Assembly (NCBI GenBank): GCA_900315565.1
Contig: OMZS01000021.1
Location: forward strand, 504-64,503
Source: an uncultured Prevotellaceae bacterium
GTDB taxonomy: Bacteria > Bacteroidota > Bacteroidia > Bacteroidales > Bacteroidaceae
Length of the DNA stretch: 64,000 nt
Direction: 5' to 3'
The notes beneath the pieces were generated by a model. The model made no database searches. It was not told where the DNA came from and was given only the letters and a program-made list of their open reading frames with translations. The position numbers and the translations under genes were made by a program. Within the stretch, counting starts at the first letter, position 1. Each line of letters opens with the position of its first letter. Below, in pieces: positions 2,696 to 5,699 of the stretch.

Positions 2696-3748
2696 CTACA
2701 TCGGATCAATTTTCGTCCATCCTTCTCTCTCCTTAATAGCTCCATGTCTAATAGTTGATCGATTATGGCTCGTAGAATAAACTTTAGTTCCGTTCTTTTT
2801 AAGCGCAAAAACAGTGGAGCGGTTAAGATACTTCCCTTGCTTTTCAGTAGAAATATAGGCTATCTTGGGATTTACGTGCTTGATGATGGTTGAGTCTAAA
2901 TTGTGCTTGCTGCCATGATGTGGCACTTTCATCCATGTAACACCTTTAAATTTACCAAGTAAATCCTGCGGTACGTGGTTGAACGCATCTCTGCCAGCGT
3001 CTCCCGTAAACAAAAATTTTTGCCCTTCATCTGTTTCTAACAAAAATACAATACTGCTCTGGTTGTGAGCAGATGCATCATCTGCAGCATCATCTAGTGT
3101 TTTGCTCAGCGTTGTTTCGTCCGAGGCATCACCTTCCGTGCTATACATGTTTTCTTCGAAAGCCTCCCATGCCCAATGGAAATTCAGTCTATTCCTGAAC
3201 TTTGGCAGGAGGCTCTCATAGTAATCTTTCGTAGGGCTTATAATCGTTATTTTCGGCTCGTCAAGATAGTTGCCAGCGAATACTTCTATCCTTTCTATCC
3301 CAGCAGAATCAATCAAGTCCAAAAGGTTCTTTTTTGAATCTTCTTTATAATCGTATACACATTTAAGCCTCGCGTCTAATGACTTTTGAGTTTGGATTCT
3401 TTGGACATCATTAGGTACAAACTCATGCTTCGTTGGGTCATTTACCCAAAAGCAATTGAAGCAGATATCATATAATTTCCCTGCTTGTAAATCTTCCAAC
3501 ATATGTACAAAACCACCTATGTGATCGTCATCAGGATGTGTAACGATTGCAGCATCAATTACATACCCTGACCATCCAATTTTGCTCACTTTATCGTAGT
3601 GAGTTCTTATATGAGTCAGAATTTTCTCTGCATCTTCATAGTTTCCCGAATCCACCATGATGATGTGACTTTCCCCATTATCTTCCATGTAATGGATTAA
3701 AAAGGCATCTGCCGCCTTTACGTCTATCATTTCTATTTCATACCGCAT
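2696..3748 (-). CDS. MBL-fold metallo-hydrolase, ComEC/Rec2-type motif set (putative nuclease)
   Basis: 350-aa ORF with IVTHPDDDHIGG (HxDxDH) and the downstream KVPHHGSKHN. This motif pair is typical of ComEC-like DNA-processing MBL domains. It lies 40 nt downstream of the RloB-like gene on the same strand. Confidence 0.8.
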   Translation of the reverse strand: MRYEIEMIDVKAADAFLIHYMEDNGESHIIMVDSGNYEDAEKILTHIRTHYDKVSKIGWSGYVIDAAIVTHPDDDHIGGFVHMLEDLQAGKLYDICFNCFWVNDPTKHEFVPNDVQRIQTQKSLDARLKCVYDYKEDSKKNLLDLIDSAGIERIEVFAGNYLDEPKITIISPTKDYYESLLPKFRNRLNFHWAWEAFEENMYSTEGDASDETTLSKTLDDAADDASAHNQSSIVFLLETDEGQKFLFTGDAGRDAFNHVPQDLLGKFKGVTWMKVPHHGSKHNLDSTIIKHVNPKIAYISTEKQGKYLNRSTVFALKKNGTKVYSTSHNRSTIRHGAIKEREGWTKIDPM

Positions 3749-3788
3749 AAATTACTGTTTTATTGCGAAAAAATGTAACAATTGATTC

Positions 3789-4394
3789 TTATAAATTCTT
3801 CAAAATCTTCATCAGCCTTCCAAGCTCAGAGTAAGTATAGTCTCTGTCACTTTTTAGTTTCTCATCCATCGAGCGATTCGCATTGGTTACAGCCTTTTCG
3901 AGATTGCCACCATTGCGCTCAAAGTAACCGTGCAGTCCTTTACACTTGATGAAGAACTCTATCGTTTTCCGATACTCGACACATTGGTTGAGGTCTTTAA
4001 GCAATGGCTCCTGCTCATCATATGGACGTGAGGTGTATCGGAAATAATAGAGGAAAAACAGTTCTGTGCAGCGGTGAGTCTCAAAGAACTCTACTTTGCA
4101 ATAGATGCCTTTCTTGGGTTTGTCGACGGGCTTGGCATACTTTGCTTTTAGCTTCTGGTATTGTGAACGCTCTAGTTCCTTGTCCTTCGTATCCATATCG
4201 ATGATGCAGAAGATGTGGCTGTAGCCCAGGGCGACGCCTTCTTCTATCTTCGCTTCAAGTTCCTTAAGGTTTGTGTGCTTGGGATAATCTGGTTTGATGG
4301 TCAAACGCTTGAACACATCGCACAAGGATTTGAAGTAAAAGAACTCTGTTGGCCCTTCACCCAAGATAAGTGCTGTTTGACGTTGCTTTCCCAT
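3789..4394 (-). CDS. RloB-like (Toprim-like) protein, AbiLii-type
   Basis: 201 aa. It has the N-terminal ALILGEGPTEFFYF, the acidic FCIIDMD, and VEFFETHRCTELFFLYYF in the position of the RloB SNPcFElW-type motif. Its start lies 1 nt from the stop of the upstream ATPase. Confidence 0.75.
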   Translation of the reverse strand: MGKQRQTALILGEGPTEFFYFKSLCDVFKRLTIKPDYPKHTNLKELEAKIEEGVALGYSHIFCIIDMDTKDKELERSQYQKLKAKYAKPVDKPKKGIYCKVEFFETHRCTELFFLYYFRYTSRPYDEQEPLLKDLNQCVEYRKTIEFFIKCKGLHGYFERNGGNLEKAVTNANRSMDEKLKSDRDYTYSELGRLMKILKNL

Positions 4395-4395
4395 A

Positions 4396-5676
4396 TCAAT
4401 CCTCCAGATTAATAAAGATACTACCCAGTTCTGGCTTTGCCCCTAATCGGCCTATGCGATAAGAGTTATACAGAGAGAGGTTCTTGTGCAATCCAAATGA
4501 ATCGCCACGGGAATACTCGGATGATGCCGTCTCTTTGTTTTTCTCCACAAACCATACGACGCCTCTGTTCTCATTGATCAAGTCTTGGGAAAGGAGCGTT
4601 GTCTCCTGGCTCGTGATAATCAATTGAGATTTTTCTGAGTTGAATAAGAAAACATTAAGATAGTAGTACAGCAAATCATTATGTATATCCTCTCCCAACT
4701 CATCAAGATAGTACACGTGAGAACTTGTAATCATATCGTATAATGCATCCAATATGCGTATATATTTTATAGTTCCTTTTGACTGCCATTTGAGCGGAAT
4801 GTCAAAATCTCCATTATTAGAATGATTAACAAATGCCACAGAATCTGCCGTCGGTTTTATCAAGGCCTCCTTCATTTCCTCGGGAATGTTTTCCTTTTGA
4901 ATGCGTTCCCGATATTCCGATGGCACAAAACGATCTTCTACAATCGGTCGATATTCCAAAATGTTCAAATCGGCCTTCTGAAGCATTGTGTTATAGAATT
5001 TACGCTTTTTAGGAGTGTTGTATGCATCCCTTAGGATTTCAACAATACCTTTTTCCCCATCACCATCCACATCATGATAGTTGTCCATAATCCAATTATG
5101 AAGTGTATTAAACAGAGCTATATCTTCTTTCAAAGCGGCTTTTCGGCAAACAGACAATACACTGTGATTGTTCAAAGTGTTTTCGCGGATGCTTTCCTGC
5201 GTCTTGACTTGCAATTTAAGACTCGCACCGAACTTGATGTCTGCCTGTACATTCTCGCCCACAAAACTGCGCTCATAGAACAGGGACTTTGATTTGTTTG
5301 GATAATAGTACAAAGCTTCACTCAAAATATGTTTGCCATTGAACTTGACATCATAGTCATATCGTGTGCCGTTGGCATAGAATGACACATGCATCTCCGT
5401 TGGCTCATCTTTGGTGAGTACAAATGGAATACAGCCTCCAATGTCGACAGTCGCATCCGATTTTGGCATGATCAACAGGCGGAACACCTCATTCATGGCG
5501 ATCAGCATATTTGACTTACCCGAAGCATTTGAACCATATAGGATGCCTAACTTGTATAAAAACACACCATCAGCAACTTCTGTGACAAGTTCCGAAGATG
5601 GCCCTTTTGCCACGAAGCTTAATTCCTGCTGGTCGCGTATGGAAAGATAGTTCTTTACCCAAAAATCTCGTATCAT
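4396..5676 (-). CDS. AAA_21/ABC-type ATPase, AbiLi-type
   Basis: 426 aa from ATG 5676; the listed TTG at 5682 is less likely. Walker A is GSNASGKSN, the signature is QSKGT and Walker B is YYLDELGEDIH. The H-loop position reads LIITSQE (Q where H is expected). Confidence 0.8.
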   Translation of the reverse strand: MIRDFWVKNYLSIRDQQELSFVAKGPSSELVTEVADGVFLYKLGILYGSNASGKSNMLIAMNEVFRLLIMPKSDATVDIGGCIPFVLTKDEPTEMHVSFYANGTRYDYDVKFNGKHILSEALYYYPNKSKSLFYERSFVGENVQADIKFGASLKLQVKTQESIRENTLNNHSVLSVCRKAALKEDIALFNTLHNWIMDNYHDVDGDGEKGIVEILRDAYNTPKKRKFYNTMLQKADLNILEYRPIVEDRFVPSEYRERIQKENIPEEMKEALIKPTADSVAFVNHSNNGDFDIPLKWQSKGTIKYIRILDALYDMITSSHVYYLDELGEDIHNDLLYYYLNVFLFNSEKSQLIITSQETTLLSQDLINENRGVVWFVEKNKETASSEYSRGDSFGLHKNLSLYNSYRIGRLGAKPELGSIFINLED

Positions 5677-5699
5677 ATTCAAAATATTTTGTTTATTTT

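Follow-up and report, generated by a model that had tools for sequence, protein, structure and literature searches.

Introduction

AbiL of Lactococcus lactis (AbiLi/AbiLii; Burman et al.) is a two-gene operon in which an AAA_21 ATPase is followed by a Toprim-like protein of the RloB family. Here we analyse a pair of the same layout in a 64,000-nucleotide (nt) stretch of DNA from an uncultured Prevotellaceae bacterium (GenBank assembly GCA_900315565.1, contig OMZS01000021.1, positions 504 to 64,503 of the forward strand; this whole stretch is referred to as the window). The pair differs from AbiL in that its host belongs to the Bacteroidales, in that the ATPase has Gln in place of the H-loop His, and in that a gene for a protein of the metallo-beta-lactamase (MBL) fold, here named MBL350, lies 40 nt further on, an MBL not being part of AbiL as described. 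The original prediction for this locus, made from its sequence alone, had suggested that the three genes may be a variant of AbiL with the MBL as a third, effector component. Our comparisons argue instead that the trio is probably an autonomous AbiL cassette juxtaposed with the MBL of an adjacent module, made up of a 6A-MBL system and a membrane protein; functional coupling of the AbiL pair and the MBL is unlikely.

PARIS (AriA and AriB) follows the same logic as AbiL, with an AAA15/21 ATPase and a small Toprim-type nuclease; the ATPase senses a trigger and releases the nuclease, and tRNA is cleaved (PMC11464382). Of such systems it offers the mechanism that is understood best. PDC-M48 is a candidate system in PADLOC that consists of a membrane protein (M48A) and an MBL (M48B), and a literature search for 'PDC-M48' found nothing. 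The primary paper on 6A-MBL as an anti-phage system is reportedly one by van den Berg, of 2024. Iyer et al. (2006; PMC1779556) classed the combination of an E2-E1-JAB triple-module protein with a specialised MBL as operon type 6a, and a preprint cites 6A-MBL as a defence against jumbo phages (bioRxiv 10.1101/2025.09.30.679545).

Results

The AbiL pair and the layout of the trio

The list of open reading frames (ORFs) and the sequence agreed with the original prediction in that three intact minus-strand genes are tightly packed, with gaps of 1 and 40 nt. The features of the trio are as follows (loci fetched for comparison carry L numbers).

5683-5734, minus strand: upstream end of the AbiL cassette, with a -7 box, TATTTTTG, at 5720-5713 (edge of the cassette homology, motif scan)
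4396-5682, minus strand: ABC/AAA_21 ATPase of the AbiLi type (Pfam AAA_21, PADLOC AbiLi, motif alignment, dN/dS)
3789-4394, minus strand: Toprim-like protein of the RloB/AbiLii type (Pfam RloB, PADLOC AbiLii)
3749-3788, minus strand: RloB-MBL spacer of 40 nt (terminator scan, folding, homology to L105, L008 and L114)
2696-3748, minus strand: MBL350, a stand-alone ComEC-type MBL-fold hydrolase (Pfam, PADLOC, NCBIfam, PDB and fold matches, AlphaFold2)

The ATPase frame at 4396-5682 encodes 428 amino acids (aa) from a TTG codon, whereas the ATG at 5676 gives 426 aa; since the 426-aa product is the one called by gene callers in related contigs, this ATG is likely to be the true start, which places the gene at 4396-5676. 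RloB has 201 aa and MBL350 has 350 aa. The junction between the ATPase and RloB genes reads TGA-T-ATG, and the spacer runs up to the ATG of the MBL gene.

The pair proved to be of the AbiL type, as had been supposed, and all of the motifs originally quoted for the three proteins are present in the translations. The ATPase matched Pfam AAA_21 (1.1e-19, 72 bits against a cut-off of 27) and PADLOC AbiLi (2.8e-60), and has a Walker A motif (GSNASGKSN), a signature (QSKGT), a Walker B motif (YYLDELGEDIH) and the segment LIITSQE with Gln at the H-loop position. Immediately downstream on the same strand, RloB matched Pfam RloB (4.6e-21, 76 bits against a cut-off of 31.5) and PADLOC AbiLii (1.3e-12); its motifs are ALILGEGPTEFFYF and FCIIDMD, with the conserved Glu in GEGPTE and the DMD. 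AbiL appears to need no obligatory third gene, as close pairs have varied downstream genes or none. The resemblance to PARIS that had been noted holds for the general logic of an ATPase with a Toprim-type partner and fails for membership, in that the partner belongs to RloB (PF13707) and not to the DUF4435-type AriB, and was matched only by AbiLii (PADLOC) and RloB (Pfam), with no match to AriB. A PADLOC match of the ATPase to AriA is probably generic, because its length (304) and matched positions are identical to those of the Pfam AAA_21 match. Judged by these profiles, the pair is not a member of PARIS.

The Gln at the H-loop is real. The same column reads TTH in a homologue on a Phocaeicola plasmid and STH in one on a Klebsiella plasmid, against TSQ in the window ATPase (4600-4620), in its 83-92% identical orthologues and in a neighbouring paralogue, AAA21b (L001:11063-12418(-)), which is described below. 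On this alignment the change from His to Gln is specific to the clade, in which it may make ATP hydrolysis slow or altered.

The AbiL pair as a cassette with varied neighbours

Homologues of RloB fell into more than 2300 clusters. All of the top 120 had at least 84% identity, and a single cluster comprised 7196 sequences; for the MBL, 49 clusters above 70% identity were found. Nine close RloB proteins were looked up; each time RloB was accompanied by the 426-aa ATPase, and the gene that came next varied. The close RloB and AbiLi orthologues (84-92% identity) mostly had genes other than the MBL downstream. After close (at least 84% identical) RloB genes we found PDC-M43A/B, GajA with UvrD (Gabija), a 323-aa protein with PycTM, an ISL3 transposase, uncharacterised proteins of about 700, 1209 and 448 aa, a gene on the opposite strand, or nothing recognisable. 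The cassette so defined measures about 1.9-2.0 kb and is found very often in Bacteroidales of the gut and rumen. Its DNA homology to the window (77-82% at the nucleotide level) extends from the putative promoter, at about 5730, to the RloB stop codon, at about 3800, where it usually ends; the left edge lies at about 5724-5734 in L114, L126 and L009.

Loci of the widespread L114 type (97 data blocks) have an intact pair and the 40-nt spacer, after which the MBL gene continues for about 17 nt before unrelated DNA takes over; this amounts to a natural deletion of the MBL with the pair intact. Loss of the MBL has thus left the entire spacer in place in such AbiL cassettes; its last 24 nt or so move with the MBL, the homology of L105 and L008 beginning 24 nt before the MBL ATG. 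A 109-aa ORF after RloB in L114 was considered as a fragment of the MBL and rejected, its translation being unrelated and without a Pfam or PADLOC match. Searches of a plasmid database gave distant homologues only (at most 33% identity). On a Klebsiella plasmid of 5.2 kb the ATPase-RloB pair is the only cargo, and on a Phocaeicola plasmid a distant pair (ATPase 32% identity) is followed by a TIR-SIR2-TIR module that it overlaps by 4 nt.

As a separate observation, AbiLi-RloB usually lies directly upstream of another defence module, at 40-210 nt and on the same strand (L120, L125, L126, L130, L131, L134, L135, L138-L141), and of 10 distinct contexts 8 have the downstream gene on the same strand. 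Among these downstream genes, those for the unannotated proteins of about 448, 700 and 1209 aa may be new defence genes.

The partners of the MBL

The first 12 kb of the window are 100% identical to the rumen metagenome contig L001, save for three segments missing from the window. L001, which continues beyond the left edge of the window, has four genes that converge on the MBL gene: hyp246, a 380-aa MBL, a 718-aa E2-E1-JAB protein and AAA21b (451 aa), in that order. The 718-aa protein is 6A-MBL_cap2_3 (NF058523; 390 bits against a cut-off of 320) and the 380-aa protein, which lies outside the window, is 6A-MBL_enzyme (NF058524; 334 bits against a cut-off of 220), so that the operon converging on the trio matches both equivalog models of 6A-MBL. 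The hyp246 protein has about four transmembrane segments, and no PADLOC or Pfam model matched it.

The expectation that MBL orthologues would accompany ATPase-RloB pairs elsewhere was for the most part not borne out: orthologues of 72-77%, 43% and 28% identity, and one of 92%, lie with 6A-MBL genes and without AbiL. The co-directional order 6A-MBL enzyme, E2-E1-JAB, hyp246, MBL350, with no AbiL pair, was found in L008 (74%), L105 and L106 (74%) and L012 (43%). In Prevotella UBA11202 (74%) and Prevotella B2-R-102 (43%) the MBL orthologue is the last gene of this four-gene operon, and contig edges of L103 (77%) and L107 (72%) carry its hyp246-MBL350 end. The same order, with a patatin in place of hyp246, is present in L024 (Omnitrophica, MBL 28%), and in L011, L017 and L030 the MBL and a patatin lie beside or near a 6A-MBL pair. 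Closest to the window, L093 and L094 (MBL 92%) carry a block of MBL350, AAA21b, E2-E1-JAB, 6A-MBL enzyme and hyp246 without AbiLi-RloB, and they are homologous to L001 from base 10000 onwards, a single base ahead of the MBL start codon. MBL350 is syntenic with the 6A-MBL system across the Bacteroidota and in one Omnitrophica genome; with a membrane protein or a patatin it forms an extra gene outside the two-gene definition of that system. The arrangements in close metagenome relatives of the MBL make hyp246 its most constant neighbour. That hyp246 belongs to the PDC-M48A family was considered and rejected, as there were no cross-hits.

Among 35 species-level loci with a stand-alone MBL, the adjacent genes were a patatin in 9-10, PDC-M48A in 6, 6A-MBL genes in 6, AbiLi-RloB in 3 and hyp246 in 2. 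None of the three loci next to AbiLi-RloB has a complete MBL; the truncation is due in one of them to an ISL3 transposase. The common metagenome form (MBL 91-95%) is a seven-gene one, in which AbiLi-RloB-MBL converges on AAA21b, E2-E1-JAB, 6A-MBL enzyme and hyp246; L104 has AbiLi-RloB-MBL and hyp246 without 6A-MBL genes. The AbiL-MBL arrangement is limited to a shallow clade, whose full-length MBLs are 82-95% identical by our own alignments (85-95% as reported by the search tool).

More widely, a patatin-like phospholipase or a small PDC-M48A membrane protein recurs as the partner of stand-alone ComEC-like MBLs (L011, L013-L017, L019-L022, L024-L026, L029, L030, L034, L040). A second, more divergent MBL is often present at these loci, and a 6A-MBL pair sometimes. 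This looks like a modular unit of an MBL and a membrane effector, wider than the PDC-M48 definition.

Exchange of the genes between loci

Synonymous divergence from L001 stood at 1.5-2.0 (AbiLi) and 0.6-1.9 (RloB); the MBL values were only 0.18-0.65 in seven of eight loci. For L088 the values of AbiLi, RloB and the MBL were 1.54, 0.60 and 0.18, respectively, and there the MBL has diverged as little as the 6A block (0.09-0.18); other loci have recombination breakpoints on both sides of the MBL, including the RloB/MBL boundary. A single shared history for the MBL and the 6A block was considered and set aside, as it holds only in some locus pairs and the mosaic extends to both sides of the MBL. 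Adjacent genes of one locus pair differ up to ten-fold in synonymous divergence (L001 compared with L088, L091, L093, L095-L099, L101 and L104), which implies very frequent recombination on the scale of single genes within the island. By these measures the island is a mosaic at the level of single genes, and exchange of the AbiL pair has been independent of that of the MBL. The ratio of non-synonymous to synonymous substitution (dN/dS) was 0.03-0.17 across the trio (0.03-0.04 for the ATPase, and 0.08-0.17 for the MBL against several orthologues), indicating purifying selection on all three genes.

The G+C content from position 1 to about 7000 of the window is about 40%, whereas housekeeping genes that flank it (for example RelA/SpoT, 7792-10089) have about 55%, and the region therefore looks like an acquired island. 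Sequences of BspA-type leucine-rich repeat (LRR) proteins (LRR_5) occur on both sides of it, as a 172-aa fragment at 6102-6620 (+) of the window and as a 684-aa gene at L001:17443-19497(-), beyond hyp246, and LRR-like repeats lie upstream of AbiLi in L095 too. The island may have been inserted into, or recombined through, an LRR gene.

Transcription of the trio

A promoter or terminator separating RloB from the MBL was looked for and none was found. The terminator scan gave no terminator-like site in the spacer and, in keeping with the absence of a hairpin claimed originally, the fold of the junction was not more stable than that of shuffled sequence (z = +1.03), with no stable hairpin. Matches in the sigma-70 promoter/terminator scan were as frequent as expected from shuffled sequence, and its consensus is wrong for Bacteroidetes; a scan for the Bacteroidetes-type -7 box (TAnnTTTG) was used instead. 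The only such box 5' of the trio is TATTTTTG, and the motif scan found none near the RloB-MBL junction. The box is a putative promoter of the AbiL cassette, and co-transcription of the ATPase, RloB and MBL genes, as first proposed, is plausible from the sequence.

The MBL350 protein

The assignment of the third ORF to the ComEC type was upheld by both sequence and fold. MBL350 has the motifs THPDDDHIGG (HxDxDH) and KVPHHGSKHN (PHHGS) and the invariant residues H71, D73, D75, H76, D250, H277 and H278, and matched Pfam Lactamase_B (4e-9). With a profile of 32 homologues the best solved relative was the MBL domain of ComEC (9ic4, 4.5e-12), which was also the best Foldseek match (7e-14, TM score 0.72) of an AlphaFold2 model (pLDDT 88), followed by RNase Z, CPSF73 and RNase J. 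PHHGS is common to MBL350 and the C-terminal MBL domain of ComEC/Rec2. MBL350 differs in being a soluble, stand-alone protein of 350 aa with no competence or transmembrane domains, and in having HxDxDH rather than HxHxDH. True ComEC proteins in the scan were of about 760-800 aa and 21-25% identical to it, and on TIGR00361 it scored 52 bits against a cut-off of 190, over the C-terminal profile positions 555-661 only.

In PADLOC, MBL350 matched PDC-M48B (8e-43; PDLC04676, residues 3-349), LmuA (2.7e-37), RTasMBL (3e-28) and Avs1a (2e-15), and on these profile matches it belongs to a defence-associated family. The M48B component of PDC-M48 is thus present in the window; PDC-M48A had no match among the neighbours in the window or in L001, and adjoins only distant relatives of the MBL. 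Likewise, though the MBL matches LmuA, the scanned neighbours in the window and L001 matched no model for LmuB or LmuC of Lamassu. On 6A-MBL_enzyme (NF058524) it scored 36 bits, far below the cut-off of 220 given above, and its C-terminus (...IDPM) has no Gly-ended tail; these comparisons identify it as a separate, distantly related paralogue and not as the 6A-MBL enzyme itself. It is probably a ComEC-like metal-dependent phosphodiesterase or nuclease.

The neighbouring 6A-MBL locus

Within the window the 6A-MBL operon is represented by two features.

1-1600, plus strand: 3' part (E1 and JAB domains) of cap2_3 (E2-E1-JAB), cut by the window edge (Pfam ThiF and Prok-JAB, NCBIfam)
1622-2686, plus strand: AAA21b, a degraded second AbiLi-like AAA_21 ATPase and the last gene of the converging 6A-MBL operon (ORFs, Pfam, comparison with L001)

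The fragment at 8-1600 scored 275 bits on 6A-MBL_cap2_3. The segments that the window lacks relative to L001 are of 69, 190 and 101 nt, at 888/889, 1636/1637 and 2473/2474. The first loss is in frame and removes 23 aa of E2-E1-JAB; the second, in AAA21b, includes the Walker A motif, and with the further 101 nt the reading frame is lost. The 6A-MBL side of the window thus appears damaged, with a pseudogene for AAA21b and an E2-E1-JAB protein lacking 23 residues, while the trio is intact. No repeats flank the three deletions, so that an origin by repeat slippage is not supported, and the junctions were found in no other fetched locus; the losses may be true deletions of the strain or may have arisen in assembly. 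The intact AAA21b of L001 matched PADLOC AbiLi (4e-47). It has no RloB partner, and its place inside a 6A-MBL operon is peculiar to this clade.

In eight of eight loci (L001:14589-15731(-) and orthologues in L105, L012, L024, L017, L011 and L030) the C-terminal residue of the 6A-MBL enzyme is Gly, or a Gly stands 1-3 residues before the C-terminus, with the tails PHFYG, PHVYG, HRAG, PRAG-EN, PRAG-R, PRAG-K and PRAG-NNG, the hyphen marking the end of the Gly tail. Such tails fit E1 adenylation and JAB trimming, and suggest that the substrate adenylated, conjugated and trimmed by E2-E1-JAB is this enzyme, like the CD-NTase of type II CBASS.

Discussion

The comparisons favour two separate defence modules that would be joined in one transcription unit, the first at about 3789-5734 and the second at 2696-3748. 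In the first, AbiLi would act as infection sensor and scaffold and hold the RloB nuclease in check until a phage trigger is met; RloB/AbiLii, once released, would cut nucleic acid and abort the infection, with AriA and AriB of PARIS as the model. This pair is an autonomous and frequently exchanged cassette. The MBL would belong in evolution with the converging 6A-MBL system and the four-helix membrane protein hyp246, the order in simpler relatives being 6A-MBL enzyme, E2-E1-JAB, membrane protein or patatin, and MBL. A rearrangement of the locus in the lineage of the window would have placed the MBL 40 nt downstream of AbiL, where it is probably read from the AbiL promoter. The MBL itself may work with a partner that targets membranes or lipids (hyp246 here, a patatin or PDC-M48A elsewhere), often under the ubiquitin-like 6A-MBL pathway.

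Several points weigh against so clean a separation. The AbiLi-RloB-MBL order, with a spacer of 35-41 nt and no terminator, recurs in at least 14 rumen and human gut contigs, L104 among them. Since no promoter specific to the MBL could be recognised in this arrangement, it probably relies on the AbiL operon for its expression. Operonic fusion of the AbiL pair to other modules may sometimes be functional, given the 4-nt overlap with TIR-SIR2-TIR on the Phocaeicola plasmid. Finally, the models matched by the MBL (LmuA, RTasMBL, Avs1a) show that its family supplies interchangeable effectors or partners to other systems.

These points bear most directly on a true three-component variant of AbiL, in which AbiLi would be the sensor and RloB and the MBL the effectors, or the MBL the main nuclease, the MBL having been captured from a 6A-MBL or PDC-M48-like module. 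Such a variant is unlikely. It would suit the tight co-directional packing with no terminator and a single promoter-like box, the recurrence in at least 14 contigs, the purifying selection on all three genes, the retention of the trio and hyp246 in L104 without 6A-MBL genes, and the use of the MBL family as an effector module in the Lamassu, DRT and Avs1 models. However, it is confined to the shallow clade; deeper MBL orthologues never adjoin AbiL, L093 and L094 retain the MBL without the pair, and most close AbiL cassettes are intact without the MBL. The MBL is truncated in L009, L010 and L023 with the pair complete (intact in L009 and L010, with AbiLi split into two ORFs in L023), and recombination breakpoints fall between RloB and the MBL. 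A three-gene system is improbable because the conserved partners of the MBL are the 6A-MBL system and a membrane protein.

A looser form of coupling, in which AbiLi-RloB of gut Bacteroidales would be a portable front-end sensor or regulator that is repeatedly fused, within a single transcription unit, to varied and unrelated defence modules, from the MBL with its membrane partner in this locus to Gabija, PDC-M43, the PycTM pair, TIR-SIR2-TIR or large unknown proteins in others, with the trio as one instance cross-talking with the 6A-MBL pathway, we hold to be distinctly unlikely. It is very unlikely that all seven genes form one integrated system, with the two AbiLi-type ATPases recruited as sensors or regulators of the 6A-MBL pathway and of its MBL and membrane effectors. 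A block of about 8.5-9.5 kb does move as a unit between flanks (L088 and L095 compared with L001) and recurs in many contigs, the second AbiLi paralogue without RloB is embedded in the 6A-MBL operon in this clade alone, and both ATPases have the unusual H-loop Gln; yet partial sets occur naturally (L093 and L094 without AbiLi-RloB, L104 without 6A genes, L105 and L008 without either ATPase), synonymous divergence forms a mosaic that changes from one gene to the next, and AAA21b is a pseudogene in the window while the trio is intact. That the MBL is a functionless relic, left by the rearrangement of a 6A-MBL locus and carried behind the AbiL pair, as the deletions in the adjacent operon of the window, the truncated or frameshifted MBL350 of L009, L010, L023, L109 and L110 and remnant blocks such as L089 and L090 could indicate, is highly improbable in view of its intact ORF with all invariant catalytic residues, its dN/dS against several orthologues and its confident, well-folded structure model.

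Had the three-gene reading been true, it would have added an MBL nuclease arm to the class of ABC-ATPase/Toprim systems that includes OLD, Gabija, PARIS and AbiL. The juxtaposition of two modules, which we favour, carries a different message: tight packing without terminators is no proof that genes of a Bacteroidales defence island form one system, as an autonomous AbiL cassette precedes at least eight different downstream neighbours. It also directs attention to an apparently undescribed accessory module of 6A-MBL, composed of a second, ComEC-like MBL and a membrane protein or patatin, and the Gly-ended tails of the 6A-MBL enzyme would fit a role for that enzyme as the conjugation substrate of E2-E1-JAB, comparable to that of the CD-NTase in type II CBASS.

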